A stretch of DNA of 64,000 bases from Candidatus Margulisiibacteriota bacterium (GCA_041658745.1 JBAZZP010000001.1:165434-229433); one strand, 5' to 3'. Positions 1,233-64,000 are shown, counted from the stretch's first letter. The notes: generated by a model not told the origin, from the letters alone. Translations and numbers: made by a program.

Positions 1233-1652
1233 CTACTTTTTCAACAAATATGTTCCAACAAATATTCTAGATAAATTGGCAAACAATATAGAAATCAACC
1301 AAACAAAAATAATACACTTAAGCGTAAAATAAACCTCTGTTTTTATAACTAAAGCAATTAAAAAGGTAATAATGGCCGATGAAGAAATCACAAAAGAGTT
1401 ACCTAATACTTGCTGGATTGTCGAAACTTCTTTTTCGGGATATTTATACATACCACCCATAAAAAAAACAATCAACCAAATCATAGTAATAGGCGCGATA
1501 ATACTATTGTAGACCTCGAAAGAAAAACCAATTATTCCACCCAAATACATTTTCAGATTAAAAATTAATAAAAAAGAAAAATAAATAGTAACAGCATCGA
1601 ATAGCAATATTGCTATTTCATACAACCAAAATCGCCAGTTTATTTTAATCAC
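1233..1652 (-). CDS. hypothetical small integral membrane protein
   Basis: 139 aa, about 4 hydrophobic segments. It sits between the glycan locus and the housekeeping genes. No recognisable motif. Confidence 0.35.
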   Translation of the reverse strand: MIKINWRFWLYEIAILLFDAVTIYFSFLLIFNLKMYLGGIIGFSFEVYNSIIAPITMIWLIVFFMGGMYKYPEKEVSTIQQVLGNSFVISSSAIITFLIALVIKTEVYFTLKCIIFVWLISILFANLSRIFVGTYLLKK

Positions 1653-1674
1653 CTAAGAAATTGTAGCATAATCT

Positions 1675-3492
1675 TTACGAAGAGGCCAAATGCAATATCC
1701 TTGCCCTTATCTGATCAATTTGCCTTTTTTCAGCTAAATCCGTTAAGACATCAATCTCCGCTTTTAATTTATCATAATTCCTTGTTTCAGGCTTAGCAAT
1801 AAATATCTTTTTATGTTTAGTGGCTCGGGTTCCCTCTGATGAAGTAAAGATTTCTTCGAACAGTTTTTCTCCAGGCCGCAACCCAATGATTTTTATCTCA
1901 ATATCTTGACCAACTTCTAGCCCAGACAATTTAATTAAATCCTTTGCCAAATCCAATATTTTGACTGGTTCTCCCATATCTAAAATAAATATCTCGCCAC
2001 CTTTTCCCATTGCCCCAGCCTGGATCACCAATTGCACCGCTTCTGGAATGGTCATAAAGTAACGAGTAACCCCTGGATGGGTTATTGTTACTGGCCCCCC
2101 AGCCAAAATTTGCTGCTTAAATATAGGAACAACGCTCCCGCGGCTATCCAGCACATTTCCAAAGCGGACTGAAACAAACTTGGTTTCACTCCCGCCTTGG
2201 GCCTGGGCCTGCAATATCATTTCAATTATTCTTTTAGAAGCTCCCATTACACTAGTGGGATTAACAGCCTTATCTGTAGAAATATTAACAAAAATCTTTA
2301 CTCCGTAATGATCAGCAGCACGAATAAGATTCTGTGTACCTAAAATATTATTTAAAATAGCCTCATCAGGATTAGCTTCCATTAAGGAAACATGCTTGTG
2401 AGCGGCAGCGTGAAAAACAACCGTGGGATGATATTTTTTAAAAAGATAATCGACCTTAAGATTATCGCGCATGTCACCAATTACCACTTTTATATTCAAA
2501 AATGGGTATTTTTTGCGCAGTTCCCACTCAATATTAAAGATACTGTTTTCGCCTCGTCCAAACAAAAGAAGCTCCTTTGGTTGAAACAATGCAACTTGCT
2601 TACATATCTCCGAACCAATTGAACCTCCAGCTCCGGTAACTAATATTACTGCATCAGTTAAATACCCCGCAATTTCTTTAAGATCAATTGCTACTGGTTC
2701 TCTCCCGAGTAAATCATCTATCTGAACATTCCTAATCTGACTAATATGAATTGAACCATCGATAAGCTCATAGACTCCGGGAACAATCCTGAATAACACT
2801 TTGCTCTCTTCGCAATAATTCACAATGCGCCGTATTTCTTTCCCCGCGGCTGATGGAATGGCAATAACGATTTCATCTATAGAATATTTGTCAACTAAAG
2901 TCCGAATTTCGTTTGTCTCACCTAAAATTGGAAGACCATGAATATACATCCCCTTCTTTGTATTATCATCATCAACAAAACCAACAGGAGAATAACCTAG
3001 ATGTGGCAGCTTCAACATTTCACGGGATATCATTTCTCCAGCATCGCCAGCACCAACAATCAATATCACTCTTTTCTTTCCCATTTTGTTGCCTTTGTGC
3101 ATATTTTGCATCCAATGTCTAATAAAAAGACGTCCTCCACCTAAAAACGCAAAACAAATAACAGCATCAACAACTAAAACCCTAAAAGGAAAACCAACAA
3201 ATCCAAAGATCAAAATAGAAAAAGCAATAAGCATTGAGCTAATTCCTACCGCTTCGACTAAAGAAATCAGCTCCTTTACACTGGCATATTGCCACGCCCA
3301 ATGATAAATACCAAAATTTCGAAAAGTTCCAATTCTAAAGGCGATACCAAGCAAAATTACCCACCAGAACGATTCAATTAGTATAAAATTGCCAAAAAGC
3401 AGATAAAAGGAGGTAACCAAAGAAAATCCAATAAAAAAAATATCCGCGAGAACTAATAACACAAGAGATCTATAAACTATTATTCGATTCAT
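1675..3492 (-). CDS. membrane-anchored nucleotide-sugar 4,6-dehydratase (CapD/PglF/WbpM family)
   Basis: 605 aa. N-terminal TM helices are followed by two Rossmann regions: VGAGDAGEMISREM, then VLVTGAGGSIGSEI ... STDKAVNPTSVMGASKR (the YxxxK region). This is the typical UDP-GlcNAc 4,6-dehydratase architecture. Confidence 0.85.
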   Translation of the reverse strand: MNRIIVYRSLVLLVLADIFFIGFSLVTSFYLLFGNFILIESFWWVILLGIAFRIGTFRNFGIYHWAWQYASVKELISLVEAVGISSMLIAFSILIFGFVGFPFRVLVVDAVICFAFLGGGRLFIRHWMQNMHKGNKMGKKRVILIVGAGDAGEMISREMLKLPHLGYSPVGFVDDDNTKKGMYIHGLPILGETNEIRTLVDKYSIDEIVIAIPSAAGKEIRRIVNYCEESKVLFRIVPGVYELIDGSIHISQIRNVQIDDLLGREPVAIDLKEIAGYLTDAVILVTGAGGSIGSEICKQVALFQPKELLLFGRGENSIFNIEWELRKKYPFLNIKVVIGDMRDNLKVDYLFKKYHPTVVFHAAAHKHVSLMEANPDEAILNNILGTQNLIRAADHYGVKIFVNISTDKAVNPTSVMGASKRIIEMILQAQAQGGSETKFVSVRFGNVLDSRGSVVPIFKQQILAGGPVTITHPGVTRYFMTIPEAVQLVIQAGAMGKGGEIFILDMGEPVKILDLAKDLIKLSGLEVGQDIEIKIIGLRPGEKLFEEIFTSSEGTRATKHKKIFIAKPETRNYDKLKAEIDVLTDLAEKRQIDQIRARILHLASS

Positions 3493-3494
3493 TT

Positions 3495-4127
3495 TTAAGC
3501 CATATTATCAGGTAATTGTTTAATGCCAAAAATTGGGGCAAAAAAATGGACTTTGAGCGTTAAAAATAAGATTTGTATATCGACCCAGATATTATGTTTT
3601 CGAACATATTTCAATTGCAAACGGATTTTTTCAGGTCTAATTTTTTCTAAATATACTTTTTCTGGATCTATACTGCCTGCGAGCAATGAGCCTTCATCAG
3701 GATTCCAAATACAAGCCCAATCAGTAATGCCAGGAAGGACGCTAAGTATTTGTTTTTCCTCCTCCGTAAACAAATTAACATATATGGGTACCTCAGGCCG
3801 AGGGCCAACTAAACTCATTTCTCCACGTAAAACGCTTATAAGCTGCGCTAGCTCATCAAAATTATACTTTCTAATAATTTTGCCAATGTTGGTCACACGC
3901 ATATCATCGCCAGAAGTTGATGGCCCCCCGATTTTATCAGCATTCTGCACCATTGTTCTGAATTTGAATATTTTAAAGAGTTTGCCGTTTTTCCCAACTC
4001 TAATTTGCCGATAAAACACCGGCCCTGGAGAATCACGCTTTATCAACACGGCTAAAACTATAAATAAAGGAGCAGCCACAATAAGCCCAAATATCGACAA
4101 AATAATATCCATTAAGCGCTTAATCAT
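3495..4127 (-). CDS. small monotopic phosphoglycosyltransferase (PglC/WbaP-C-terminal 'bacterial sugar transferase')
   Basis: 210 aa. One N-terminal TM, then RDSPGPVFYRQIRVGKNGKLFKIFKFRTM and SLVGPRPE motifs. Start/stop coupled to the adjacent CapD-like gene. Confidence 0.85.
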   Translation of the reverse strand: MIKRLMDIILSIFGLIVAAPLFIVLAVLIKRDSPGPVFYRQIRVGKNGKLFKIFKFRTMVQNADKIGGPSTSGDDMRVTNIGKIIRKYNFDELAQLISVLRGEMSLVGPRPEVPIYVNLFTEEEKQILSVLPGITDWACIWNPDEGSLLAGSIDPEKVYLEKIRPEKIRLQLKYVRKHNIWVDIQILFLTLKVHFFAPIFGIKQLPDNMA

Positions 4128-4141
4128 AAATTAGTTGTCCA

Positions 4142-5311
4142 TTAAATTTGCAATAGCTTCTTTAGCCCTTTTTCAACATTTGACATTGTTTCCTCTTTTT
4201 TGCAAAAACAAAATCGCACCTGATTATTGCCCTTGTCTGATTCAGCATAGAAAGAACTCCCAGGCACTGTGGCAACCCCGGTTACCTCAATTAGTTTACG
4301 GCTAAAAGAAAAATCATTACTAACCCCTAGCTTTCTCATTAAATGGTCAGCTTCTGCAATGATATAATAAGCCCCTTTTGGCAAAACTGGACTAAACCCA
4401 ACTTCATTTAGCAATTTATATAGAAATCCCCTAGATTTTTCATATTTTTGTCTCAATTGATCGTAATAAGAATCCGGCATGTGCATGGCCACAACTGCAG
4501 CTTCTTGAAAAGGAGTTGGAGCGCCAACGGTTAAAAAATCATGAACCTTCCTAATTCGTGCCGTAATCTCAGCATTCGCAATTGCCCACCCAACGCGCCA
4601 TCCAGTCACAGAATATGATTTTGAAATAGAATTAATAGTTACGGTTCGATCTGCCATACCCCCTAGGGATGCAATCGAAATGTGTTCCGCACCATCATAC
4701 AAGATATGTTCATAAATTTCATCGGTTATCGCTAAACAATCCCATTTTTCACAAAGGGCAGCAATCTCTTCCAATTCTTTGCGTGAAAAGACCTTTCCGG
4801 ATGGGTTATTAGGGGTATTTATTATTATGGCTTTTGTCTTATCATTGAAAGCAGCGGCAAGCTCTTTTGAATCATAATGCCAGTCGGGAGAATAGATAGT
4901 TACATACCTTGGAGTAGCACCCGAGAGAATGGTATCTGCTCCATAATTTTCATAAAACGGCTCAAAAATAACGACTTCATCTCCAGGATTGATTACAGCC
5001 TTAAGGGTAGCAATCATTGCCTCTGTTGCACCACAGGTAACGGTTATATCTGTGTCAGGAGAACAAATTATTTTATTGTAGCGAGCAACTTTTTCTGCAA
5101 TTGCTTTTCTTAATTGCGGTTCGCCAAAGGTGACCGGATATTGATTGCAATCTCTAAGGATGGCATCAATCGCCGCTTGTTTTATCTCTTTTGGAGCTTC
5201 AAAATCGGGAAACCCCTGGGACAGATTATATCCTCCGGCAGCATCACAAACCCTAGTCATTTCACGAATAACCGATTCGGTAAATTTTTCGGTGATATAT
5301 GAAAGCTTCAT
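4142..5311 (-). CDS. class I/II PLP-dependent aminotransferase (AAT/MalY-like fold)
   Basis: 389 aa. NLSQGFPDF, VTCGATEA, FEPFYENY and the PLP-lysine region SISKSYSVTGWRVGW. Unusual in a glycan operon. Confidence 0.75.
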   Translation of the reverse strand: MKLSYITEKFTESVIREMTRVCDAAGGYNLSQGFPDFEAPKEIKQAAIDAILRDCNQYPVTFGEPQLRKAIAEKVARYNKIICSPDTDITVTCGATEAMIATLKAVINPGDEVVIFEPFYENYGADTILSGATPRYVTIYSPDWHYDSKELAAAFNDKTKAIIINTPNNPSGKVFSRKELEEIAALCEKWDCLAITDEIYEHILYDGAEHISIASLGGMADRTVTINSISKSYSVTGWRVGWAIANAEITARIRKVHDFLTVGAPTPFQEAAVVAMHMPDSYYDQLRQKYEKSRGFLYKLLNEVGFSPVLPKGAYYIIAEADHLMRKLGVSNDFSFSRKLIEVTGVATVPGSSFYAESDKGNNQVRFCFCKKEETMSNVEKGLKKLLQI

Positions 5312-5358
5312 CGTTCCCCTTTCTAATAACTATCGCAATGATTACACAGGTTATTCAA

Positions 5359-6462
5359 TTAGACAAAAAATTTGCGAACAGTTTGAATAACATATTGCAC
5401 TTGTTCTTCTGAAATTTCCACATTCATAGGTAAAGAGATAACTTCTTTAGATATGGACTCAGTCTCAGAGCAATAAGACCCGTCTAAATTTAGCCCATTG
5501 TAACTATAATATGGCTTGGGCCAGTGGATTAAGATTTCAATGCCGTTTTCTTTCAACCAAGCGGAAAGATTGTCTCTTTGTGAGGTGCGGATAACATAGT
5601 TCTGATAAACATCGTCATTTTTGTGATCATCAAAATGCGGAAGACCCAAATCTTTTAGTCCGCTTAGCCCATCAAGATATTGCTTAGCAATTTCTTTTCT
5701 CCGTTTTATCCAATTAGGTAGATGGCGCAATTTAACATCCAAAAAGGCGGCTTGGAGATTGTCTAATAAACAGGTAAAACCATGGTAGTAATAAGCCCCT
5801 GTTGTTCTATCTTCGCCATTATACCGAAGCAGGCGCGCTATACGAGCAGCTTCCGGATCATTTGTGGTTATTGCCCCACCATCGCCATATCCCCCCAAAA
5901 TCTTGAAAGGATAAAAGCTCCAACAACCGGTTAAACCAATTGAACCAGCCTTTCTTCCATTATAACTGGCACCCAAAGATTGGCACGCGTCTTCGATCAC
6001 AATTAACTTATGTTTCTCGGCAATGGATTGAACCGCATCCATATTTGACATTCGCCCATTAAGATGAACAGGGATAATAGCCTTAGTTTTTGGTGTGATC
6101 GCTGCTTCGATTTTTGAAACATCAATATTATAATCCTTACTAACATCAACCAATTTAGGAGTTCCGCCCGCATTGACTACGGCCGAAGCGGTAGCCACAA
6201 AAGTATGTGCGGGAACAATCACTTCATCACCGGATTTTATCCCGGCAATAATCATAGAAACATGTAAAGCATCGTAGCCACTATTTAGTCCAACAGCATA
6301 CTTTGTCCCTACGAAAGCCGCCAAATTATCCTCAAAACCGCTCAACTGACCCCGCATAATTAGATCGCCAGCTGTCATAACCTCGTTATAAGCACTATCA
6401 ATTTCATTTTTTATGAGCTGATAATTTTTTTTAGAATCAACAAACGGCACTTTATAGTTCAT
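5359..6462 (-). CDS. DegT/DnrJ/EryC1/StrS sugar aminotransferase
   Basis: 367 aa. DEVIVPAHTFVAT...; lysine retained in SFYPFKILGGYGDGGAI. Confidence 0.85.
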   Translation of the reverse strand: MNYKVPFVDSKKNYQLIKNEIDSAYNEVMTAGDLIMRGQLSGFEDNLAAFVGTKYAVGLNSGYDALHVSMIIAGIKSGDEVIVPAHTFVATASAVVNAGGTPKLVDVSKDYNIDVSKIEAAITPKTKAIIPVHLNGRMSNMDAVQSIAEKHKLIVIEDACQSLGASYNGRKAGSIGLTGCWSFYPFKILGGYGDGGAITTNDPEAARIARLLRYNGEDRTTGAYYYHGFTCLLDNLQAAFLDVKLRHLPNWIKRRKEIAKQYLDGLSGLKDLGLPHFDDHKNDDVYQNYVIRTSQRDNLSAWLKENGIEILIHWPKPYYSYNGLNLDGSYCSETESISKEVISLPMNVEISEEQVQYVIQTVRKFFV

Positions 6463-6483
6463 TCTTCTTCTCCAATTAATTAT

Positions 6484-7482
6484 TTATTTTTTATTTCTCA
6501 ATAGCTTTTGCGCTTCGATTATTATATCATTTTTATTTGGATAATAACACTTTTCTAAATTGCCATTGGCAGGAGCAGGAATATCTGGCAAGGTGATCCT
6601 TTTAATGGGCGATTTTAAAACTATGGGGCTTTCGGCAACTAAAGCCGCAATTTCAGCAGATATTCCGCCAGTTTTCCATCCCACATCGGCCACAATTAAA
6701 CGTCCAGTCTTTTGCACCGAATCTAAAATAATTTCTTTATCGAGTGGTTTTACGCTTCGCAGGTCAATAATTTCTGCGCTGATACCAAGTTTCTCTAACT
6801 CCTCACCTGCTTTACAGGCTTCATGAGCCATATAAGAAATCGCCGCAATAGTAAGATCGGTCCCTTTTCTTCTAATTACCCCTTTGCCGATGGAAATAGA
6901 GTATCTTTCTCTGGGAACAGCCTCTTCTAGTGAATAGAGCCATCTGTCATCAATAAAAACAACCGGATTATTATCTTCAATGGCAGCAATCATTAATCCT
7001 TTTGCATCATAGGGAGTTGCAGGCATAACAACTTTTAAACCAGGTACATGCGCAAACATGGCATGTAAGGCTTGAGAGTGTTGGGCCCCCTGCTCCCCAC
7101 CTCGATTAATAATCCCCCAGATAACTACAGGGACACTGGCCTTTCCACCATTCATGTAATACCAGTTGGCGGCTTGATTAATGATAGGATCAAAGCCGTA
7201 GATCATAAAATCTAGCCGGGGGTGCACAACAATAGACCTCATCCCAGCAATAGCAGCTCCCACAGCTGCACCGGTAATGGCATTTTCAGATACAGGAGTA
7301 TCAATAACCCTATTTTCACCGAATTTGGCAATTAGCCCCCTAGTTGTATTTCCCACATACCATGGGCTTTTCACCCCTTGGCCAATTAAAAACACTGATT
7401 TGTCCTTTGACATCATTTGATGCAGTGCTTCATTGATTGCTAGACTGTAAGACAATTTTCTTTTTTTATTTTTTGAAGACAT
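6484..7482 (-). CDS. TPP-dependent 2-oxoacid dehydrogenase E1 component beta-like subunit (transketolase C-terminal-like)
   Basis: 332 aa. Pyrimidine-binding and transketolase-C regions (VIDTPVSENAITGAAVGAAIAGMR, VVMPATPYDAKGLM). Overlaps the following E1-alpha gene. Confidence 0.8.
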   Translation of the reverse strand: MSSKNKKRKLSYSLAINEALHQMMSKDKSVFLIGQGVKSPWYVGNTTRGLIAKFGENRVIDTPVSENAITGAAVGAAIAGMRSIVVHPRLDFMIYGFDPIINQAANWYYMNGGKASVPVVIWGIINRGGEQGAQHSQALHAMFAHVPGLKVVMPATPYDAKGLMIAAIEDNNPVVFIDDRWLYSLEEAVPRERYSISIGKGVIRRKGTDLTIAAISYMAHEACKAGEELEKLGISAEIIDLRSVKPLDKEIILDSVQKTGRLIVADVGWKTGGISAEIAALVAESPIVLKSPIKRITLPDIPAPANGNLEKCYYPNKNDIIIEAQKLLRNKK

Positions 7483-8443
7483 ATTTACCCAGATCGCTTT
7501 CTTGCGGACAAGGACTTTTCAATGCAAAATTAAAAGCATCATTAATTTCCGCATCAACCTGTTCTTTTATCTTTAAAAGTTCCGCCTTGCCAAAAACTCC
7601 ATTCAACAAATAGCGCTCGAACCGTCTAATTGGATCTTTTTTAAACCAACCTGCAATTTCTTTTTTGGGTCGAATATCTGTGTGAACTCCTTGGACATTA
7701 TCATCGGCCCCGACATGTCCACGAAACCGATAAGTCATAAATTCGATAAAGACCGGCCCTTTGCCTGAGCGGCAGGCTAGCGCCGCCTTTTTTGCAACAG
7801 CAAAAACAGCTAACACATCATTGCCGTCAACCCTAAAACTCGGTACCGAAAAAGGCAGACCAGACTTGTATATTGTTCCATTGGCTCGACATTCGCGGAT
7901 TGACATATGCGTTGAATAAAGATTGTTTTCACAGGCAAAAATAATTGGGAGCTTCTTTAACGCAGCAAAATTAAAACTTTCATAAAGGACCCCTTCTCCC
8001 GTTGCCCCATCACCAAAAAAAGAAACCGTTACTTTTTTATCCTGGCAAATAGCAGAAGCTAGCGCCGAACCCAATGCTAGAGAAATTGTCCCAGCCACAA
8101 TTGGCGCCGACCCTAGCATTCCGGTCGCCGGTTTGCACAAGTGCATAGAACCTCCTCTTCCGCGAGAACAGCCCGTCTCCTTGCAATATACCTCAGCAAT
8201 TAATTCTTTTATCGTCCCTCCATGCGCCAAAAAGTGCCCATGGGATCTATGATTTCCAAAAACATAATCTGTCGGGCTTAAGGCCGCGCAAACTCCAGCC
8301 GCGACCGCTTCTTGCCCGGTACAAAGATGAACAGGACATTTAACTTCGCCATTTGAGATTGGGGCAATTAAGCTTTCTTCACACAGTCTTATTTGCAATA
8401 ATGTGTAATATATAGATCTTAATATACTCTTCGAATAAATCAT
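7466..8443 (-). CDS. TPP-dependent dehydrogenase E1 component alpha-like subunit
   Basis: 325 aa. TPP motif GDGATGEGVLYESFNFAALKKLPIIFACENN (GDG...NN), HLCTGQEA. No E2 or E3 partner is present. Confidence 0.8.
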   Translation of the reverse strand: MIYSKSILRSIYYTLLQIRLCEESLIAPISNGEVKCPVHLCTGQEAVAAGVCAALSPTDYVFGNHRSHGHFLAHGGTIKELIAEVYCKETGCSRGRGGSMHLCKPATGMLGSAPIVAGTISLALGSALASAICQDKKVTVSFFGDGATGEGVLYESFNFAALKKLPIIFACENNLYSTHMSIRECRANGTIYKSGLPFSVPSFRVDGNDVLAVFAVAKKAALACRSGKGPVFIEFMTYRFRGHVGADDNVQGVHTDIRPKKEIAGWFKKDPIRRFERYLLNGVFGKAELLKIKEQVDAEINDAFNFALKSPCPQESDLGKYVFKK

Positions 8444-8489
8444 GTCGTTATAATTATACAGTAAATAGTCTTAAAATGTTTGGGGAATT

Positions 8490-11251: not shown

Positions 11252-11781
11252 TAAAAGAATTTCCCTTCATTTTTTAATTTTTCGTAGTGAACTAAATTGC
11301 GGGATTTAAACATTTTGGCTGGACTACCACCAACAATTGCACATTTTGGAACATCGCTAACCACGACACTTCCTGCCTGAATAATTGCACCTTCACCAAT
11401 TGAAACTCCGCCTAACACAATGATCTTTGAGCCAAACCAAACGTTATCTCCAATAATAATATCTTTAGTGATAATGTTTTCGTCATACGGAATTTTGGTC
11501 CCATTATCAAAATTATGATTTTGGGTAATAAACAAAATATCCTCGCCCGAATGAAAATTATCGCCAAAAACTACCTTCCCTCCACCATGAATTTTTAATC
11601 CATTAAAATTGCAGTTTTTACCAAGATAAGTATTTGAAGATAAAGAGGTCCCAGAAAATGGGCGAATGTATGGGGCTTCCTTGTAAGCGGCAATTTTCCT
11701 CAGATTTTTCCTAACAATAATGGACTCGGCAAAGCCCTTGAATATTCTTCTAATAAGTCTAAACAATCCCACATCTCCCAC
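11251..11781 (-). CDS. hexapeptide-repeat (LbH) acetyltransferase
   Basis: 176 aa. Repeated [LIV]G-x4 hexapeptides: [35 protein letters not shown]. Confidence 0.75.
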
Positions 11782-52697: not shown

Positions 52698-52701
52698 TTA
52701 A

Positions 52702-54080: not shown

Positions 54081-54095
54081 TGGTCTCCTAGCCCC

Positions 54096-55178: not shown

Positions 55179-55202
55179 TTTATACCTCCAAATATAGATA
55201 GA

Positions 55203-56171: not shown

Positions 56172-56174
56172 ACT

Positions 56175-57983: not shown

Positions 57984-58484
57984 TTAGCCTTTTACAGACA
58001 GTAACAAATCTAATAATTCTCTTACTGCACCAGCCCCGCCAGAACGTTTGGTAACGATGTTAGATACTTTGACTATAGTTGAGTGAGCATCTTTTGGACA
58101 GACAGACAAGCCAACTATTTTTAGCGCCGGCAGATCAATAATATCATCACCTATAAAACAAATTTCGGATAAACCAAAATTATATTTTTTAGCATATTCG
58201 ATAACCGCCTTAGCCTTATCATGGCATCCCTTATAAACATCATTTATCTTCAACTTTTTTGCGTAACGAGAGACAATTGCCATCCCGGAAGGACTACTTT
58301 CACCAGAAACTAAACCAATTTTAATCCCCGCCTTCTGGGCCAGGGAAATTCCCGTCCTATCGGCAAAACAAAATCTCTTCATCTCTAAGCTATCAGAATC
58401 CAACCAAAAAGACCCATCAGTTAAAACACCATCAACGTCCATTAAAACTGCTTTTATTCTTTTTATTTCTTTTCGCACTATCAA
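57984..58484 (-). CDS. HAD-superfamily KdsC-family phosphatase (Kdo-8-P / nonulosonate-9-P phosphatase-like)
   Basis: 166 aa. LMDVDGVLTDG (DxDG), FIGDDIIDLP. Confidence 0.8.
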   Translation of the reverse strand: MIVRKEIKRIKAVLMDVDGVLTDGSFWLDSDSLEMKRFCFADRTGISLAQKAGIKIGLVSGESSPSGMAIVSRYAKKLKINDVYKGCHDKAKAVIEYAKKYNFGLSEICFIGDDIIDLPALKIVGLSVCPKDAHSTIVKVSNIVTKRSGGAGAVRELLDLLLSVKG

Positions 58485-58506
58485 GATGGCCTCCTAAATA
58501 ATAATT

Positions 58507-59376
58507 TTATACATTTCTAAGTCTTTTAATAATAGGCTCTTCACATGCCAATATTTTTTTGACTCCATTCCCCATAGATGTTTCAACCAGACGAATATCC
58601 CTAATTAATCGATTTAAGCCATTTGGTTCTAGAGAGGCGGCATGATCAGATCCCCACATAGCTCGATCCAAAGTAATATGGCGTTCTATAACACACGCTC
58701 CCATCGCCCGAGCAGCAACTGAAGAGGGTAAGCCCGTTTCGTGACCAGAATATCCAACCAAAACCTTATATCTGTTTTTTAAAAAAGGGATCAAACGCAA
58801 ATTGAGATCTTCGTATCGAGCGGGATAAGCACTGCAACAATGCAGCAAAATTAAATTGTCCTTTTGTAAAACTTCAACCGCATGATCCAGTTGTTCTAAA
58901 GATGACATGCCGGTGGATAATATTACTGTTTTACCCTGTTTTCTTACGTGTTTTAGCAAAACATCATCCGTTAATTTTGCGGCCGGGATCTTAATGCAAG
59001 GGGTGTTATATTGAGCAATAAAATCAACTGAATCAATATCCCACACCGAAACCAACCATGTAATACCAATTTCTTTGCAATACTTATTGATTTCATCATA
59101 CTCTTTCTTGCCAAATTCTATTTTATTGCGGTAATCGAAATAGGTCATATTTCCCCAGGGGGTCTCTCGCAGAATATCTCGTTGACTTAAAGGTACGCAT
59201 AATTCTGGATTGCGTTTTTGAAATTTAACGGCATTACAGCCCGCATCAGCAGCGACCGCAATCAGCTTCTTCGCAATATCTATCTCCCCATTGTGATTTA
59301 TCCCTATCTCCGCAATAAAATACGAAGGGCAATCATCACCAACTTGAACATTACCAATCTCTAAATTACTTGTCAT
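58507..59376 (-). CDS. third NeuB-family synthase paralog (short form, no SAF domain)
   Basis: 289 aa. YFIAEIGINHNGE, KFQKR, KIPAAK, GYSGHETG. Confidence 0.8.
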   Translation of the reverse strand: MTSNLEIGNVQVGDDCPSYFIAEIGINHNGEIDIAKKLIAVAADAGCNAVKFQKRNPELCVPLSQRDILRETPWGNMTYFDYRNKIEFGKKEYDEINKYCKEIGITWLVSVWDIDSVDFIAQYNTPCIKIPAAKLTDDVLLKHVRKQGKTVILSTGMSSLEQLDHAVEVLQKDNLILLHCCSAYPARYEDLNLRLIPFLKNRYKVLVGYSGHETGLPSSVAARAMGACVIERHITLDRAMWGSDHAASLEPNGLNRLIRDIRLVETSMGNGVKKILACEEPIIKRLRNV

Positions 59377-59396
59377 GCTTCCCCTCCTATAATTTG

Positions 59397-60734
59397 TTAA
59401 GCGAACTTTTTAATCGTACTTATAATAAAGTCAATCATTTTTCCTGTCATCCCGGGATAAACCCCAACCCAAAAAGTTTGATTCATTACAATATCGGTAT
59501 TTATTAATTTTCCAACAACACGAAAGCCCTTTCTTTTTTTTCTCATTTCATCAAAACAAGGATGTTTTATCATATTGCCAGCAAAGAGCATGCGGGTTTG
59601 TATCCCTTTTGATTCAAGATATTGCACAATTTGATCCCGCGTGTAGCCAGAGGATTTCTTTACCGTCAGCAAAAAACCAAACCAGCTCGGATCAGAATAT
59701 TCCGCAATCTCAGGCAAAACAAAAACATCTTGCATTTGATTGAGGCCAGATCGCAATATTTGCCAGTTTTTTTTCCTAGCTTCAACAAAAGCAGGCAGTT
59801 TTTCTAATTGAGCGCAACCAATGGCTGCCTGCAGATCGGTAGCTTTTAAATTGTATCCAAAATGCGAATAAACATATTTATGATCATAACCAAAAGGAAG
59901 TTCACCAAATTGCTGGGTAAAACGTCGTCCACAGCTATTATCTATTCCGGATGGACACCAACAGTCTCTCCCCCAATCACGCAGAGAGTTAACTATTTTA
60001 TTTAGCTGCCTATCATTAGTATAAACGGCACCACCTTCTCCCATCGTCATATGGTGAGGAGGATAAAAGCTAGAAGTTGCAACGTGGCCAAAGGTCCCAG
60101 TTTGATGCCAGCTCCCCTTATACTTATACCTAGATCCCAAAGAATCACAATTATCTTCAATTAACCAGAGGTTATGTTTATCACAAAAGTTTTTTACCGC
60201 ACTAATATCGAAAGGATTTCCCAAAGTATGGGCCAAGATAACCGCCTTGGTTTTCTTGGAAAGGGCCTTCTTTAATTGGGAACAATCAATATTATATGAG
60301 GGAAGAGAAACATCTACAAAGACCGGAATTGCTCCATATTGTACAATGGGAGCGATGGTGGTGGGGAAACCAGCCGCAACAGTTATGACTTCATCCCCTT
60401 TCTTTATCCTTTTATTTCCCAACTTAGGCGAAGTTAAAGCCATAAAAGCCAAAAGGTTAGCAGAAGAACCAGAATTTACAAGCGAACAGAACTTTATCCC
60501 CAAATACGCAGCAAATTCTTTTTCAAATCTTTCAGCATAACGACCTGTGGTCAACCAAAAATCCAGAGAAGCATCAATCAAATTGGCAATTTCTTTCTCA
60601 TCAAAAACCCTGCCGGCATATGAAATACGATCACCTGGAACAAATTCATGCTGTGTAGACAAATGTTTAAATTCATAATGGTTGATGGCTGCTTGGATAG
60701 CTTTTTTTCTTAGTACTTTATCTTTACTTTTCAT
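59397..60734 (-). CDS. rfbH: CDP-4-keto-6-deoxyglucose 3-dehydrase (E1; RfbH/DdhC-like PMP + [2Fe-2S] enzyme)
   Basis: 445 aa, DegT fold, but the PLP-lysine position reads SFYPPHHMTMGEGG (His in place of Lys). It also has DCWCPSGIDNSCG (C-x-C-x7-C iron-sulfur motif). Confidence 0.8.
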   Translation of the reverse strand: MKSKDKVLRKKAIQAAINHYEFKHLSTQHEFVPGDRISYAGRVFDEKEIANLIDASLDFWLTTGRYAERFEKEFAAYLGIKFCSLVNSGSSANLLAFMALTSPKLGNKRIKKGDEVITVAAGFPTTIAPIVQYGAIPVFVDVSLPSYNIDCSQLKKALSKKTKAVILAHTLGNPFDISAVKNFCDKHNLWLIEDNCDSLGSRYKYKGSWHQTGTFGHVATSSFYPPHHMTMGEGGAVYTNDRQLNKIVNSLRDWGRDCWCPSGIDNSCGRRFTQQFGELPFGYDHKYVYSHFGYNLKATDLQAAIGCAQLEKLPAFVEARKKNWQILRSGLNQMQDVFVLPEIAEYSDPSWFGFLLTVKKSSGYTRDQIVQYLESKGIQTRMLFAGNMIKHPCFDEMRKKRKGFRVVGKLINTDIVMNQTFWVGVYPGMTGKMIDFIISTIKKFA

Positions 60735-60773
60735 AATTTAATACCGGTTTACCCTATATGGATAACCCATAAA

Positions 60774-61652
60774 CTACCTCCAATATAATATTACTATTAC
60801 AGCAAACAGCCAGCCAAACATCGCACCTATTAATGGGATATCTGACAGCATCAAGTTTTCTGCGCTGCCACCCTCATCTTTTTTATAAACCAAATATAGA
60901 TAACGGAACAATCCAAAAATGACAAAAGGAACCGTATATATCAGGTTAGAAGTATTAAATTTTTGCACCGTCTCAGAGGATAATGTATAGAGAGAATAGG
61001 TTAGGATTATTGCCGCAGTAACCACAGAGATCAATTGGTCAAGATATTGAAGGTTATATTCTTGAAAAACAAGGCGATGAATAACCGCATTTTCACCTAA
61101 AACCAAAATTTCGTTCCGGCGTTTACAAAAAACAATAAACAGAGCCAGAAGAAAGGCACAGACAAGAAACCAAGGAGTAAAAACAACCCCAATTACTTCT
61201 ACCCCGGCAACCGCACGAATGACATAGCCAGCTGCAATTATAAAAGCATCAAGAATAACTATTTTTTTCAAACCAAAAGTATAACCAAGCATTATTATGA
61301 TATATGCCACAACAAGATAACAAAAGTTAACATTTAATTGATAAGAAAAAAACAAGGAAAAAGGCAAAGCCACAATAACAAACAATTTAGCGATAATCGG
61401 AGACAAGGCTCCACTAGCAAGCGGACGCAGCTTCTTAGAAGAATGCAGTTTATCATTTTGCATATCTTTCAAATCATTAATTAAATAAATACAACTGGTT
61501 ACAGCACAAAACAAGAGAAAGGCATAAACAGTATTGATGAATAAAGGCAGATTAGATAATTTTAAAGCAAATAAAATCCCGGCAAAAATGATTAGGTTTT
61601 TGAGCCATTGCTTGGGGCGTAGGGATATCCACAAATAATAAAACTGCTTCAT
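60774..61652 (-). CDS. UbiA-family prenyl-phosphate phosphoribosyltransferase (DPPR-synthase-like)
   Basis: 292 aa, about 8 TM segments. N-terminal LRPKQWLKNLIIFAG and the aspartate motif INDLKDMQNDK (NDxxDxxxD). Confidence 0.65.
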   Translation of the reverse strand: MKQFYYLWISLRPKQWLKNLIIFAGILFALKLSNLPLFINTVYAFLLFCAVTSCIYLINDLKDMQNDKLHSSKKLRPLASGALSPIIAKLFVIVALPFSLFFSYQLNVNFCYLVVAYIIIMLGYTFGLKKIVILDAFIIAAGYVIRAVAGVEVIGVVFTPWFLVCAFLLALFIVFCKRRNEILVLGENAVIHRLVFQEYNLQYLDQLISVVTAAIILTYSLYTLSSETVQKFNTSNLIYTVPFVIFGLFRYLYLVYKKDEGGSAENLMLSDIPLIGAMFGWLFAVIVILYWR

Positions 61653-62707
61653 TGCATGTAATCCTTAATTTGACCGATACAAACCTCTCGCAAATCCTGC
61701 CTATTTTTGTATGCTAGTGTCCAGTCCATCACTTTTTGCAAGGCCATATCAAGATCCCACTGCGGTTTCCAACCTAGTTCTTTTTTGGCCTTGGCAATAT
61801 TTAAACGCAAATAATGGGTTTCGTGCGGATGTTTTCCACGGTCAATAGCATACGAAGCTCCCTGCCCCCATTTTTGGCAGAGTCGCTTTACAATCCAATC
61901 AACCGTCTTAGCATCACTTTTTTCCGGACCAAAGTTCCAGGCACCTGCATATTTCTCCCCATCAAGACAAAGTTTTTGCGCCAATAATAGATAGCCCGTT
62001 AATGGTTCTAACACATGCTGCCAGGGACGAACCGCTTTGGGACAGCGAACCATAATTTTTTCGTTTTTCAAAATCGCCCGCACAAAATCGGGAATTAAGC
62101 GATCGGCCGCCCAATCTCCACCCCCAATAACGTTACCGGCTCGAGCCGTAGCCACTGCCACCCTAGGGCTCAAAAAGGAACGGCGATAAGCCGCGGTAAC
62201 TATTTCACTGCAAGCCTTACTGCTGGAATACGGATCATAACCACCCAGTGGATCCCCCTCCAAATAACCCTGCCCCCTACTCCCTATCCCCTTCACCTCG
62301 TAACATTTATCCGTAGTAATATTGACAATGGCTTTTACCGCTTTGCAGCTGCGGGCCGCCTCTAACAAATTAACGGTTCCAAGAACATTGATTGTGTAGG
62401 TTTCAACCGGATTCTTGTATGATTCTCTAACCAGCGGCTGGGCAGCCATATGGATTATGATTTCTGGTTTTGCTTTGTGTATTACTTTTATTAGGTTGTC
62501 GCTATCTCGAATATCACCGATATGTGAATCAACCAGTTGGTCGACCCGACAGAGCTTAAAAAGGCTTGGGCTAGTGGGCGGATTCAAGGCATACCCCGTA
62601 ACTTCAGCTCCCAAATAATTTAGATAAATTGAGAGCCAGGTGCCTTTAAATCCGGTCTGTCCGGTAATAAATACCTTGCGGCCCTTCCAAAAACTACTTT
62701 TTTTCAA
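61649..62707 (-). CDS. rfbG: CDP-glucose 4,6-dehydratase
   Basis: 352 aa. FWKGRKVFITGQTGFKGTWL, HMAAQPLV, YSSSKACSE, RAGNVIGGGDWAADRLIPD. Near-collinear with enterobacterial RfbG. Confidence 0.9.
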   Translation of the reverse strand: MKKSSFWKGRKVFITGQTGFKGTWLSIYLNYLGAEVTGYALNPPTSPSLFKLCRVDQLVDSHIGDIRDSDNLIKVIHKAKPEIIIHMAAQPLVRESYKNPVETYTINVLGTVNLLEAARSCKAVKAIVNITTDKCYEVKGIGSRGQGYLEGDPLGGYDPYSSSKACSEIVTAAYRRSFLSPRVAVATARAGNVIGGGDWAADRLIPDFVRAILKNEKIMVRCPKAVRPWQHVLEPLTGYLLLAQKLCLDGEKYAGAWNFGPEKSDAKTVDWIVKRLCQKWGQGASYAIDRGKHPHETHYLRLNIAKAKKELGWKPQWDLDMALQKVMDWTLAYKNRQDLREVCIGQIKDYMQ

Positions 62708-63947
62708 TACGAGACCTCTTTACATATTTCTTAATACTATTATCTGGGCTTTTCCCAATAAAGGTATAGTCCGAACGTAAATATTGTTCAATTTCTGGAT
62801 GATCATAAGCCACATCATAAAAAACAATAGTTCCACTCGGGGAATTTTTAATAAATGCAATTAATTGATTGAAATCCTTTTTAAACATAAGCTCCTGGGG
62901 ACCTGGCATATTTACAGGATAAGACTTGCCTGCCGCTAAAGAATATATTCCTGAGTGCATTGAAATAATCAACACCATATTAATTGATCTATAATCCTTT
63001 GAAATAAAATTAACATTCTTGATTATTGCCGAATTAGGCTGGATAACGCTAAGCTTCCAACGCTGATAAATGACATTATATGCAAAGGGCAAGGAGGAAA
63101 CGCAAAACAACAGGGAAAAAATAAGCCCAAAACTAATGCAATAGTTAAACAGTTGATAGATTGAGTTTTTATTTTGTTTTAGATATTCATTTAGCTGATC
63201 TAGATAAATGATTAGCAATAATATGGCCGGATAGGAAACAGTCACCAGAACAAAATCATGACTTCGTCCTTGATAGTATACAAATATCCCAAATCCCACA
63301 AAAGACACAAATTGAATCAACATGCTTTTTTCATTTGCTTGACGATCGATTAATGCTTTTATGCCTAGAAAAGCACCAATTAAATAAAGAAAATAAACAA
63401 TTATCCAAGGATGAAAGAACTTCATTGGGATCATCTTATAACCATAAGAATAATATGCCTGCTGGTAAATAAAATTAGACGCATAATTGGGAATGTTCCC
63501 GCTAAATGAAAAAATATACAGTGAATATAATGTTAATACGCCTATAAAAAAAGCCAGAGCAACCATAAGATGCTTCAACACAAGCCAATAGTTTCGAGTT
63601 AGCAAAGATTGATAAATCAATAGTATTATCCAAGATAATAAAACTACAATTCCGGTATCAAAATTCCAGAATAGGGCTATTGTTGCAACAAAAAAAGATA
63701 GATAATAAATTAATTTGCTTTTACTTGATATATACCTGCCTGCCAAATAACAAATACAAGCAGGGAAAAAGAACCTTATAGGAAAATACTGAAAATAGCA
63801 GTCATGATTGTTCGAATATATACGTGAAAATAGATAGCACCAAAAAACAATTACCACATATCCAGCAGAGGCGATAAGCTTATCATTAATATATTCTTTG
63901 ATAAACAAGTAAAGAAAGACCAACGACAACAACATTATAATAGACAT
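62694..63947 (-). CDS. polytopic integral membrane protein (candidate GT-C glycosyltransferase or polymerase)
   Basis: 417 aa, about 11 hydrophobic segments. TAATG overlap with an upstream partial gene at the window edge. Confidence 0.35.
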   Translation of the reverse strand: MSIIMLLSLVFLYLFIKEYINDKLIASAGYVVIVFWCYLFSRIYSNNHDCYFQYFPIRFFFPACICYLAGRYISSKSKLIYYLSFFVATIALFWNFDTGIVVLLSWIILLIYQSLLTRNYWLVLKHLMVALAFFIGVLTLYSLYIFSFSGNIPNYASNFIYQQAYYSYGYKMIPMKFFHPWIIVYFLYLIGAFLGIKALIDRQANEKSMLIQFVSFVGFGIFVYYQGRSHDFVLVTVSYPAILLLIIYLDQLNEYLKQNKNSIYQLFNYCISFGLIFSLLFCVSSLPFAYNVIYQRWKLSVIQPNSAIIKNVNFISKDYRSINMVLIISMHSGIYSLAAGKSYPVNMPGPQELMFKKDFNQLIAFIKNSPSGTIVFYDVAYDHPEIEQYLRSDYTFIGKSPDNSIKKYVKRSRIEKK

Positions 63948-64000
63948 TACAATGGTGAATTTAAGGACAGATAAGCCAATAACCCAAAATATCGGCTTTA

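Follow-up and report, generated by a model that had tools for sequence, protein, structure and literature searches.

Does the long, dense run of sugar genes on a Candidatus Margulisiibacteriota contig encode one polysaccharide system transcribed as a unit, or does it consist of separate loci that stand side by side? The question was raised by an earlier note on a 64,000-nucleotide stretch of this contig (GCA_041658745.1 JBAZZP010000001.1:165434-229433; hereafter the window), which had described the run as a single glycan super-operon. Margulisbacteria and Saganbacteria are uncultivated sister lineages of the Cyanobacteria; to our knowledge nothing is known of their cell-surface glycans, and a search of open-access text returned nothing on glycan loci of Margulisbacteria. 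The complete glycan region extends from mraY to mtnP/apt, i.e. it has housekeeping genes on both sides, and measures about 69.6 kb with about 68 genes (window-equivalent 1.2-70.8 kb). In our view it is best explained, with a probability of about 65%, as the head-to-tail juxtaposition of two loci, A and B, each conserved separately in the lineage. Judged by its genes, the region is a member of the Wzx/Wzy-type surface-glycan loci, and a cassette within locus A is its most interesting part.

The evidence for two loci comes from the gene order of relatives, two of which were compared for each locus over about 20 kb each (contigs L162 and L165 for locus A, L170 and L171 for locus B). Locus A measures about 23 kb (window-equivalent 70.8 down to 47.9 kb). 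In L162 and L165, a co-directional series runs (MraY)-MarR-GT2-flippase-GT2-PMT_2/methyltransferase-cytidylyltransferase-CDP-glucose dehydratase-RfbH-NeuB-small protein-thiamine diphosphate (ThDP) enzyme (GT2, family 2 glycosyltransferase), with identities to the locus A proteins of 42-44% for the flippase, 43-45% for the cytidylyltransferase, 61-62% for the CDP-glucose dehydratase, 72-75% for RfbH, and 53-61% for the ThDP enzyme. L165 also carries homologues of g46 (59%), g47 (41%), and g48 (59%, adjoining RfbH; gene numbers as in Table 1). Homologues of the locus A flippase (42-46% identity) are common in this lineage, and in other Margulisbacteria the flippase/CDP-sugar module follows mraY or other genes. 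The NeuB that precedes the ThDP enzyme in L162 (17831-19348) and L165 (18936-20444) is fused to a Cupin_2 domain (502-505 amino acids (aa)), which may be a sugar-phosphate isomerase supplying the aldose substrate.

Locus B measures about 46 kb (47.8 down to 1.2 kb, g45 to g02). In L170 and L171, the genes fliI, fliJ, recG, and RNase PH are followed by RmlA, RmlB, two sugar genes, Wza, Wzz, and HTH_17, with identities of 65-70% (RmlA), 66% (RmlB), 49-59% (Wza), 31-42% (Wzz), and 69-78% (HTH_17); Wza-like homologues at 49-60% occur in Margulisbacteria, these two included. Beyond HTH_17, both contigs continue with different co-directional glycan genes, with a homologue of g08 (53%) in the variable region of L171, and locus A does not precede. 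On this comparison of gene order, locus B is a fixed five-gene head, RmlA-RmlB-Wza-Wzz-HTH_17, with strain-variable cargo. Since A and B occupy different genomic sites in the relatives, they are probably not one operon or one system.

The distribution of promoter-like sites points in the same direction. We scanned the minus strand of the window for sigma70-like sites with at least 10 of 12 consensus matches and obtained 16, 2 of which are intergenic against a chance expectation of 0.2. Both fall exactly at the boundaries defined by synteny, one at the A|B junction and the other, the best of the window, before the helix-turn-helix (HTH) gene; this coincidence argues for at least three transcription units. 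Transcription is thus predicted to start probably three times or more: upstream of locus A, at the junction, and before the HTH gene. The -10 boxes end 9 nucleotides (nt; g45) and 15 nt (HTH gene) before the start codons, which would make the mRNAs leaderless or near-leaderless if the sites are real. The HTH protein itself (77 aa) is 78% and 69% identical to 75-76-aa PF12728 proteins that follow Wzz in L170 and L171; it has no PDB match, and its family is taken from the Pfam label of these homologues and from its NCBI name. Given its conservation, we regard it as a candidate for the regulation of locus B's variable part.

A single super-operon, in which all pathways enter one complex repeat unit through one Wzx/Wzy/Wza system, has the compactness of the window on its side. 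The earlier note had counted about 60 consecutive minus-strand genes with many short overlaps, and this holds: 61 minus-strand open reading frames (ORFs) of at least 100 aa tile positions 476..63947, every plus-strand ORF of that length is nested within one of them, and the 77-aa HTH ORF (43259..43026) occupies the single large gap. Overlaps are found at 23 of the 60 junctions (7 of the ATGA/GTGA type and 3 of the TAATG/TAGTG type, the remainder being partly artefacts of choosing the longest ORF start); the other junctions comprise 21 gaps of 0-20 bp, 13 of 21-50 bp, 2 of 51-120 bp, and one of 313 bp. Once the 77-aa ORF is counted, intergenic DNA makes up 1.3% of 476..63947 (~99% coding). The window has a GC content of 35-43% and a negative GC skew throughout, and neither tRNA genes, nor Rfam matches, nor repeats resembling insertion sequences or inverted repeats were found in it. 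Uninterrupted co-directionality, dense coding, and many 1- and 4-nt overlaps speak for one operon, but we consider this explanation improbable. Its halves lie at different sites in the relatives, the region has two flippases (g19 in locus B and a second one, beyond the window, in locus A), the promoter-like sites and the conserved small HTH gene stand at internal boundaries, and two opposite-strand genes break the run 1.5 kb past the window. Moreover, 7-8 glycosyltransferases stand against at least seven sugar routes plus decorations; as so few transferases cannot place unlimited sugars, it is more likely that several of the pathways supply decorations or another glycan. What remains of the super-operon is a very large co-directional region, probably not one operon or system.

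Both ends of the region could be placed. At the low-coordinate end, the flanking housekeeping genes are mtnP and apt, as the earlier note had stated. Homologues of the mtnP-like gene, 91-57% identical, occur in many metagenome-assembled genomes (MAGs), the best being from Margulisiibacteriota/Saganbacteria; the cluster is absent from all 24 closest mtnP loci, in keeping with variation at the level of strains or species. In the closest relative (L002, JASEHX010000033.1; mtnP 91% identical) the contig stops at a homologue of g02 (51-428, 63%), and the assembly seems to have broken there, at the border of the glycan region, as a hypervariable locus would lead one to expect. At the other end, the run continues past position 64,000, again as the note had it. 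Logan contig SRR8449812_4578 (94 kb; L001) is 100% identical to window positions 50774-64000 and extends 7.6 kb further, and the glycan region ends on it at mraY, about 6.8 kb past the window edge. A search for further contigs encoding four of the exact proteins found none, and a metagenome scan gave relatives of 59-62% only. The genes in between are, in order, a glucose-1-phosphate cytidylyltransferase 0.7 kb past the window (TIGR02623 325 bits, cut-off 300), the two opposite-strand genes, GtrA, a GtrB-like GT2 with two C-terminal transmembrane (TM) segments, and the second MOP flippase. Neither opposite-strand protein has a family match; the 465-aa one resembles, in a single weak pairwise match (E 0.008), a relative's GT-C protein (PMT_2). 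The last gene (Glycos_transf_4) was considered as a WecA-type priming enzyme and rejected, as it is MraY: it has the motif HHFEMLGW, shares 67% identity with the MraY_sig1 proteins of relatives, and counts over 500 ordinary relatives, including hundreds at 40-45% in unrelated metagenomes.

Because the source is a MAG, the contiguity of the two loci might also be an assembly artefact, i.e. a chimera of two strains or species. Hypervariable glycan loci are frequent points of breakage and mis-joining, and the contig of the closest relative does stop at the g02 homologue. Such an artefact is nonetheless very improbable, given that a single 273.5-kb contig holds proteins of both halves, the HTH gene recurs in a second assembly (on a contig of 273,134 bp), and the independent Logan assembly of SRR8449812 is identical over the 13.2 kb that can be compared. 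The GC content and the GC content at third codon positions (GC3), calculated per gene, show no compositional break between modules and, like the GC skew, are uniform across the A|B junction. The proteins of the window are MFA5839208-261 (tags WC890_00965-01230) of a public, machine-annotated MAG record, and each of ten that were matched exactly is alone in its 90% cluster or has at most two other sequences with it. The NCBI accession numbering from g20 (MFA5839218) to the HTH gene (MFA5839241) implies one annotated gene beyond the list of ORFs of at least 100 aa.

Family searches bear out most of the gene calls. Pfam matches were obtained for 55 of the 61 ORFs, and the NCBIfam WbuX model added g34, so that 56 have a family and five (g02, g10, g16, g20, and g61) have none. 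The products scoring above the curated NCBIfam cut-offs are LegB, LegC, NeuC, NeuD, a NeuB-type synthase, WbuX, the NDP-sugar 6-dehydrogenase, dTDP-glucose 4,6-dehydratase, a KdsC-family phosphatase, RfbH, a UbiA protein of the DPPR-synthase type, and CDP-glucose 4,6-dehydratase. Gmd, RmlA, the PglF-type dehydratase, and the PglC-type Bac_transf protein are near cut-off or assigned at the domain level only. Also assigned at the domain level are five DegT aminotransferases, two formyltransferase-like proteins, two NDP-hexose C-methyltransferases, the E1 alpha/beta pair, two radical SAM/SPASM proteins, the three-domain ThDP enzyme, Wzx, the Wzz-domain protein, and the 711-aa Wza-like outer membrane polysaccharide export (OPX) protein. 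The inventory of CDP-, GDP-, UDP-, and dTDP-sugar and CMP-nonulosonate enzymes announced earlier therefore holds, several of its members above curated cut-offs, although for the CDP route the glucose-1-phosphate cytidylyltransferase gene is located just beyond the window. Two radical SAM enzymes (g49 and g53) were likewise found as described; the three ThDP enzymes are indeed three ORFs, but they amount to two enzymes, the E1 alpha/beta pair and one YerE-like protein.

Table 1 Features of the glycan region, in window coordinates unless stated otherwise; PF and TIGR/NF numbers are Pfam and NCBIfam models, and roles not covered by a family model are predictions. SAM, S-adenosylmethionine; PLP, pyridoxal phosphate; HAD, haloacid dehalogenase; SDR, short-chain dehydrogenase/reductase; PCP, polysaccharide co-polymerase; PRPP, phosphoribosyl pyrophosphate; MTA, methylthioadenosine.
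Gene	Product or feature	Coordinates	Strand	Evidence and remarks
apt	Adenine phosphoribosyltransferase, cut by window start; housekeeping flank	1..475	-	PRPP motif VLIIDDLIATGGT, read by eye, not by family search
mtnP	mtnP-like purine/MTA phosphorylase; housekeeping flank, low-coordinate boundary	476..1222	-	PF01048 147 bits
g02	Small membrane protein, 4 TM (hydropathy); last gene of locus B	1233..1652	-	No Pfam match
g03	PglF/CapD-type membrane-anchored UDP-GlcNAc 4,6-dehydratase	1675..3492	-	PF02719 398.6 bits + CoA_binding_3; best NCBIfam PseB, 204 bits, below cut-off
g04	PglC-type polyprenyl-phosphate phosphoglycosyltransferase, 210 aa	3495..4127	-	PF02397 196.6 bits (cut-off 27); region's only priming enzyme
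g05	Class I/II PLP aminotransferase	4142..5311	-	PF00155 233 bits; NCBIfam 390 bits (cut-off 553)
g06	DegT sugar aminotransferase, predicted PglE-like role	5359..6462	-	PF01041 338 bits
g07	E1 beta-type ThDP subunit	6484..7482	-	PF02779 + PF02780; PDH E1 beta 320.9 bits (cut-off 321)
g08	E1 alpha-type ThDP subunit, g07 partner	7466..8443	-	PF00676 233 bits
g09	Formyltransferase-like, N + C domains, ArnA-FT/Fmt-like	8490..9503	-	PF00551 + PF02911; PDB ArnA formyltransferase domain 84 bits
g10	Protein of 251 aa	9478..10233	-	No family match; NCBI hypothetical protein WC890_00965
g11	GT2 glycosyltransferase	10226..11251	-	PF00535 85 bits
g12	Hexapeptide-repeat O-acetyltransferase	11251..11781	-	PF00132; best NCBIfam maltose/WbbJ-type acetyltransferases
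g13	GT4 glycosyltransferase	11759..13078	-	PF13439, PF13579
g14	SAM methyltransferase	13075..13863	-	PF13649 and others
g15	GT4/GT1 glycosyltransferase	13796..14893	-	PF00534 106 bits
g16	Polytopic protein, 11 TM (hydropathy), Wzy polymerase candidate	14893..16155	-	No Pfam/NCBIfam match
g17	GT-B-like, candidate nonulosonate transferase	16169..17839	-	PF04464, PF05159; BFO_1060 103 bits + TIGR04396 69 bits, both below cut-off
g18	Candidate nonulosonate transferase	17842..19539	-	g17 paralogue, 43% identical
g19	Wzx-type flippase	19536..21092	-	PF01943 66.4 bits (cut-off 28.2); at least 10 TM
g20	Membrane protein, 690 aa, 11 TM	21011..23083	-	No Pfam, NCBIfam, or PDB match
g21	SAM methyltransferase	23105..23902	-	PF13489 69 bits
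g22	DegT aminotransferase, predicted perosamine-synthase-like role	23905..25002	-	PF01041 383 bits; LegC family 301 bits (cut-off 420)
g23	Sugar N-formyltransferase-like, 261 aa	25010..25795	-	PF00551; PDB ArnA-FT 73 bits
g24	NUDIX hydrolase, Gmm-like	25912..26364	-	PF00293; GDP-mannose mannosyl hydrolase 57 bits (cut-off 146)
g25	NDP-hexose C-methyltransferase	26378..27637	-	PF08421 + PF13489 + PF08484
g26	GT2 glycosyltransferase, 247 aa	27622..28365	-	PF00535 110 bits
g27	GDP-mannose 4,6-dehydratase-like	28378..29421	-	TIGR01472 379.5 bits, just below cut-off 415; PF16363 396 bits
g28	CBS-domain sugar-1-phosphate nucleotidyltransferase, predicted PtmE-like role	29449..30516	-	PF00571 + PF00483 architecture only
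g29	NeuD/PglD-family N-acetyltransferase (LegH role)	30506..31150	-	TIGR03570 206 bits (cut-off 161)
g30	Hydrolysing 2-epimerase NeuC (LegG role)	31147..32328	-	TIGR03568 473.5 bits (cut-off 236)
g31	LegC aminotransferase	32294..33472	-	TIGR04181 502 bits (cut-off 420)
g32	LegB NAD-dependent 4,6-dehydratase	33465..34463	-	TIGR04180 503 bits (cut-off 475)
g33	ATC_hydrolase-family protein, 153 aa	34466..34927	-	PF14196 72 bits; wedged between LegB and WbuX genes
g34	WbuX-type N-acetyl sugar amidotransferase, predicted acetimidoyl formation	34949..36106	-	TIGR03573 328 bits (cut-off 203)
g35	Nonulosonate synthase with SAF domain (LegI role)	36190..37215	-	TIGR03569 498 bits (cut-off 400); PF03102 + PF08666
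g36	Putative CMP-nonulosonate synthetase, window's only one of its type	37250..37984	-	PF02348 81 bits; all NCBIfam models (KdsB-type) below cut-off
g37	Second NeuB-family synthase	37981..39000	-	PF03102 169 bits; TIGR03569 227 bits (cut-off 400)
g38	DegT aminotransferase, predicted WbpE-like role	39006..40169	-	PF01041 416 bits
g39	Hexapeptide N-acetyltransferase, predicted WbpD-like role	40112..40684	-	PF00132 73 bits
g40	GFO/IDH/MocA oxidoreductase, predicted WbpB-like role	40671..41690	-	PF01408 and others; UDP-GlcNAc 3-dehydrogenase 158 bits (cut-off 450)
g41	NDP-N-acetyl-sugar 6-dehydrogenase, WbpA/WecC-like	41694..43025	-	TIGR03026 441 bits (cut-off 190)
HTH	HTH_17-type protein, 77 aa; first gene after internal promoter-like site	43026..43259	-	MFA5839241.1 'helix-turn-helix domain-containing protein'
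	Promoter-like motif TTGACA-17-TATTAT with TG	43274..43302	-	313-bp Wzz|HTH gap; 11/12, best of window; consensus match only
g42	Short Wzz/PCP-domain protein, 218 aa, 2 TM, without kinase domain	43339..43995	-	PF02706 38.3 bits (cut-off 25.5)
g43	Wza-like OPX, 711 aa, several SLBB	43995..46130	-	PF02563 55.7 bits (cut-off 28), PF10531, PF22461; NCBIfam export-protein models below cut-off
g44	dTDP-glucose 4,6-dehydratase	46127..47101	-	TIGR01181 464 bits (cut-off 365)
g45	RmlA-like glucose-1-phosphate thymidylyltransferase; first of locus B	47102..47833	-	PF00483 203 bits; TIGR01207 247 bits (cut-off 361)
	Promoter-like motif GTCACA-16-TATAAT with TG	47842..47869	-	41-bp A|B junction gap; consensus match only
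g46	SAM methyltransferase; last of locus A	47875..48606	-	PF08241 74 bits
g47	GT2 glycosyltransferase	48608..49642	-	PF00535 84 bits
g48	Metallo-beta-lactamase-fold hydrolase	49686..50447	-	PF12706
g49	Radical SAM/SPASM (cassette)	50455..51555	-	PF04055 + PF13186; CxxxCxxC at residue 54; 74% in L167
g50	NDP-hexose C-methyltransferase-like (cassette)	51567..52697	-	PF13489 + PF08484; 52% in L167
g51	NUDIX-like (cassette)	52702..53202	-	PF00293 weak; 51% in L167
g52	SDR epimerase/reductase, YerF-like ketoreductase candidate (cassette)	53199..54080	-	PF01370 90 bits; 56% in L167
g53	Radical SAM/SPASM, small distinct subfamily (cassette)	54096..55178	-	PF04055 + PF13186; 73% in L167, 62% in L168
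g54	GFO/IDH/MocA oxidoreductase (cassette)	55203..56171	-	PF01408 and others; 55-56% in L167, L168
g55	YerE-like ThDP carboligase (cassette)	56175..57983	-	PF02776, PF00205, PF02775; 57-70% in L167-L169
g56	KdsC/KDN-9-P-type HAD phosphatase (cassette)	57984..58484	-	TIGR01670 135 bits (cut-off 107); KDN-9-P phosphatase 129 (cut-off 180)
g57	SAF-less NeuB-family synthase, 289 aa (cassette)	58507..59376	-	PF03102 266 bits
g58	RfbH, CDP-4-keto-6-deoxyglucose 3-dehydrase (E1)	59397..60734	-	NF011936 730 bits (cut-off 423)
g59	UbiA-family polyprenyl-phosphate phosphoribosyltransferase, 9 TM	60774..61652	-	NF008977 258 bits (cut-off 234)
g60	CDP-glucose 4,6-dehydratase	61649..62707	-	TIGR02622 478 bits (cut-off 278)
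g61	C-terminal two thirds of 660-aa protein, 13 TM	62694..64000	-	Full gene L001 6977-8959; no Pfam/PDB match
	Two opposite-strand genes	L001 3698-6104 (window-equivalent 65.5-68.0 kb)	+	465 aa, 10 TM; 335 aa, 3 TM

Gene families and their order allow the sugar products of locus B to be predicted. The genes g41-g38 would provide a WbpA/B/E/D-like route to a UDP-2,3-diacetamido-uronic acid, and g36-g28 a complete GDP-linked route to CMP-legionaminic acid with an added amidotransferase. A 4-amino sugar derived from GDP-mannose, N-formylated and perhaps C-methylated, would come from g27-g22. In this group, g23 matches the Brucella GDP-perosamine N-formyltransferase chain 5vyr, which also has 261 aa, at 68 bits; that entry is deposited as 'Gdp-mannose 4,6-dehydratase / gdp-4-amino-4,6-dideoxy-d-mannose formyltransferase'. 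The window holds three NeuB homologues and one putative CMP-sugar synthetase, and g17 and g18 offer one candidate nonulosonate transferase for each of two of the three synthases. These tandem proteins (556 and 565 aa) have a C-terminal BFO_1060/TIGR04396-like domain and about 330 N-terminal residues without assignment.

A further route would start from g03, which with g06 and g04 may form a PglF/aminotransferase/PglC-type priming set, and may be coupled to g07/g08 as an alphaKADH2-type enzyme for C2 branching. Enzymes of the alphaKADH2 type attach C2 branches open to subsequent transamination (PMC12247030), and a stand-alone E1 alpha/beta pair beside two aminotransferases matches them; the window has no E2 or E3 gene to accompany the pair. 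We infer from this context that g07/g08 is a candidate alphaKADH2-type sugar-branching enzyme. Phosphonate biosynthesis, considered for the same combination of E1 alpha/beta and aminotransferase, was dropped as no phosphoenolpyruvate (PEP) mutase family match occurs in the window.

With six glycosyltransferases, Wzx, a Wzy candidate, Wzz, OPX, and a PglC-type primer, locus B would work like a Wzx/Wzy-dependent heteropolysaccharide locus. The export and polymerization set proposed in the earlier note is thereby confirmed for Wza, Wzz, Wzx, and the PglC-type transferase, and not for the Wzy-like protein, which has 11 TM segments and no family match. The membrane protein g20 could be an alternative polymerase or ligase; its AlphaFold2 single-sequence model was unusable (mean confidence score pLDDT 41).

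Some of the same genes would suit a protein glycosylation island, the region, or its locus B, mainly making O- or N-glycans of flagellin, pilin, or S-layer proteins. PglF/PglC-type priming occurs in Campylobacter N-glycosylation, the polytopic proteins g16, g20, and g61 could be oligosaccharyltransferases, and locus B of the relatives starts 5 kb downstream of fliI-fliJ. The predicted complete legionaminic acid route is accompanied by two paralogous transferases of the BFO_1060 family, a name from Tannerella, where pseudaminic and legionaminic acid transferases serve general protein O-glycosylation (PMC5420450). On the other hand, a conserved Wza-like OPX and a Wzz-domain protein head locus B, the BFO_1060 and TIGR04396 scores are below cut-off, and, with the thresholds applied here, no ORF of the window matches STT3/PglB, PglL/Wzy_C, or Maf families. 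We therefore judge a glycosylation island unlikely and retain the Wzx/Wzy-type reading for locus B.

Locus A is predicted to make a C-4 acyl-branched 3,6-dideoxyhexose by means of its cassette, and this sugar would then be handed to a polyprenyl-phosphate carrier and transferred in the periplasm as a decoration. For the phosphoribosyl route of g59, the window contains no FAD-oxidase-type ORF that could be a DprE1/DprE2 2'-epimerase, which makes a ribofuranosyl donor likelier than an arabinofuranosyl one. The incomplete g61, judged by its topology, is a possible GT-C.

The cassette comprises the nine genes g57-g49, encoding in this order NeuB, HAD phosphatase, ThDP enzyme, GFO oxidoreductase, radical SAM, SDR, NUDIX, C-methyltransferase, and radical SAM proteins. 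Three contexts were examined outside the lineage, with taxon labels taken from the NCBI names of identical proteins. In L167 (Elusimicrobia-type, 8001-16870), all of g57-g49 occur in the same order at 51-78% identity, whereas L168 (Smithella-type, 8001-13493) and L169 (Verrucomicrobiota-type, 8001-11185) have shorter versions with RfbH and CDP-glucose dehydratase nearby; the g57 family is 62-78% identical across phyla. In all three of these unrelated contexts, the phosphatase, a 600-aa ThDP enzyme, or both come after NeuB, and the NeuB-ThDP pair is also found in both Margulisbacteria relatives. Among 2.4 Mb of loci retrieved for unrelated purposes, the pair was absent. Behind the cassette of L168 stands a GT2 that shares 68% identity with the GtrB-like GT2 of locus A.

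Among solved structures, g55 is closest to the YerE-like JanthE (8rph), at 390 bits over the full length versus 277 bits for the best acetolactate synthase (PMC12188165). Its ThDP motif is non-canonical (ADG-(24)-NN at residue 455, versus the canonical GDG...NN); the motif of JanthE also departs from the canonical one in the first residue (CDG). The only PDB match of g53 is the auxiliary-cluster domain of BtrN, and its subfamily comprises 41 clusters (50% identity) at E values of at most 1e-30 among 1.84 billion representatives.

In the known YerE-like route, a clustered pyruvate aldolase provides the keto acid that is ligated onto CDP-4-keto-3,6-dideoxy-D-glucose (PMC9306805), leading to yersiniose, erwiniose, caryophyllose, or gastriose (PMC9306805; PMC12247030). 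No family match to an aldolase supplying the keto acid was obtained here; g57 and g56 occupy that position. One may tentatively propose, with doubt prevailing, that the cassette is an undescribed variant of acyl-branched sugar synthesis in which the NeuB product is the donor keto acid. The SAF-less NeuB and the HAD phosphatase would first make a 3-deoxy-2-ulosonic acid (Kdo/KDN-like), and this acid, instead of being CMP-activated, would serve the YerE-like carboligase as alpha-keto acid donor. Decarboxylative addition to CDP-4-keto-3,6-dideoxyglucose would then install a very long, polyhydroxylated C-4 branch, giving a 13-14-carbon sugar, longer than caryophyllose, which the GFO, SDR, C-methyltransferase, and two radical SAM/SPASM proteins might tailor, possibly into a carbocycle. 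This donor role is favoured by the adjacency of the NeuB and ThDP genes in the contexts above and by the CDP-dideoxyhexose genes near the cassette, and no CTP_transf_3-type cytidylyltransferase was found within 8 kb in L167, L168, or L169. A simpler scheme has equal standing: the ThDP enzyme may use pyruvate to form a yersiniose-type C2 branch, the NeuB product being a separate sugar. Candidates for a YerF-type reduction of the branch are g54 (GFO) and g52 (SDR). Open-access text yielded nothing on clusters of NeuB, ThDP, and radical SAM genes.

Several observations weigh against the reading of the region as two juxtaposed loci with the functions given above. The relatives inspected were two per locus over about 20 kb, and A and B could adjoin in others. 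Phosphoglycosyltransferase (g04), OPX, and PCP genes occur only once each in the whole region, and locus A lacks its own primer; this is consistent with A and B working together on a single final glycan, and likewise favours the single super-operon. The same holds for the gaps of the window, none of which contains an intrinsic terminator or a terminator-like hairpin, so that read-through from A into B is possible; the promoter-like sites are consensus matches and would leave leaders of only ~2-8 nt. Regarding function, the assignment of g16 as candidate Wzy rests on its 11-TM topology, and no ORF of the window matches an O-antigen ligase (Wzy_C/WaaL-type) family, which could be encoded elsewhere; gene content does not distinguish between O-antigen, capsule, and glycoprotein. 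The possible GT-C nature of g61 and of the 465-aa protein is suggested by topology and by the one weak match mentioned above. Finally, ferredoxin-reductase-type domains, expected of an E3 partner for RfbH (AscD/RfbI type), are absent from the window and the 7.6 kb beyond it, and an E3 gene is absent from the L167-L169 contexts too; either a housekeeping reductase serves RfbH, or the 3-deoxygenation differs.

How far does the region resemble known systems? No characterized locus with the same content and order was found. The size is within the known range, since Leptospira O-antigen loci are up to 121,402 bp long and, in pathogens, have a median length of ~99.5 kb (PMC4758666; PMC10958091). The combination that the earlier note did not recognize is made up of modules that each belong to a recognized pathway family, so that the unfamiliarity reflects the mixture and not a new kind of system. 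Like Leptospira rfb, the region is very long and largely co-directional, with tens of genes at a fixed site, conserved ends and a variable middle, dTDP-sugar genes, and Wzx/Wzy-type processing; rfb starts beside MarR, the loci of this lineage beside MarR/HTH_24 or HTH_17. Unlike rfb, it belongs to another phylum, consists of two loci that are separate in relatives, and has an OPX/PCP pair, a CDP-dideoxyhexose branching cassette, and a UbiA route; no sequence-level synteny was found, Leptospira DNA not having been compared directly. Low GC and the long co-directional run had first suggested that the window itself might be a Leptospira rfb locus; this idea was discarded, since the relatives of mtnP and the exact protein matches assign the window to Candidatus Margulisiibacteriota.

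Locus A resembles the YerE/YerF, ErwE/F/I/J, MMAR_2331-2333, and MyGE clusters, where genes for CDP-4-keto-3,6-dideoxyglucose also stand beside a YerE-like ThDP enzyme, with an oxidoreductase, a methyltransferase, a glycosyltransferase, and an enzyme forming the alpha-keto acid (PMC9306805; PMC12247030). It differs in having a PEP-dependent NeuB-family synthase and a HAD phosphatase instead of a pyruvate aldolase, in the addition of two radical SAM/SPASM, one NUDIX, and one metallo-beta-lactamase-fold protein, and in lacking an E3 reductase gene. The pair g07/g08 resembles the alphaKADH2 enzymes of aldgamycin, kibdelomycin, and avilamycin in being a stand-alone E1 alpha/beta without E2/E3 beside sugar genes (PMC12247030); those are actinobacterial antibiotic pathways, whereas here the pair lies in a surface-glycan locus of a candidate phylum and its function is suggested by context.

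The legionaminic acid genes recall the CMP-legionaminic route of Campylobacter jejuni: LegB, LegC, NeuC, NeuD, and NeuB score above cut-off, and genes for a CBS-nucleotidyltransferase and a putative CMP-synthetase adjoin. The route lies here inside a Wzx/Wza-type locus rather than in a flagellar island, has no Maf, and carries inserted WbuX amidotransferase and ATC_hydrolase-like genes; its roles are assigned by homology. The E. coli group 1 capsule is made by a Wzx/Wzy-dependent locus with Wza (OPX) and Wzc (PCP). As in Wzx/Wzy capsule and O-antigen loci, a primer, glycosyltransferases, a MOP flippase, a polymerase candidate, PCP, and OPX stand in one co-directional locus; as differences, the PCP (218 aa) has neither a tyrosine kinase domain nor a tyrosine kinase partner, the OPX (711 aa) has multiple SLBB domains, the polymerase candidate is without family assignment, and no ligase is seen. 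Polyprenyl-phosphate sugar donor systems include GtrA/GtrB/GtrC, ArnC/ArnT, and the mycobacterial decaprenyl-phosphate phosphoribosyltransferase (UbiA, DPPR synthase). Locus A shares with them a GT2 with two C-terminal TM segments, GtrA, polytopic proteins, and the DPPR-type g59; unlike the mycobacterial route, it has no DprE1/DprE2-type epimerase, and its GT-C partners are without family match.

For the organism, the bounded gene set from mraY to mtnP predicts an unusually decorated surface, with legionaminic acid derivatives, diacetamido-uronic acid, formamido and C-methyl sugars, and two kinds of ThDP-branched sugars. For the lineage, two conserved locus heads with variable cargo would provide an architectural rule that aids the annotation of related MAGs. 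More than 200 YerE-like and about 120 alphaKADH2 clusters have been predicted, mostly with unknown products (PMC12247030). The cassette of locus A, which recurs in no fewer than four phyla with protein identities of up to 78% and of which we found no description, is a candidate for the synthesis of a new higher-carbon branched sugar and may hold new sugar chemistry of ThDP and radical SAM enzymes.

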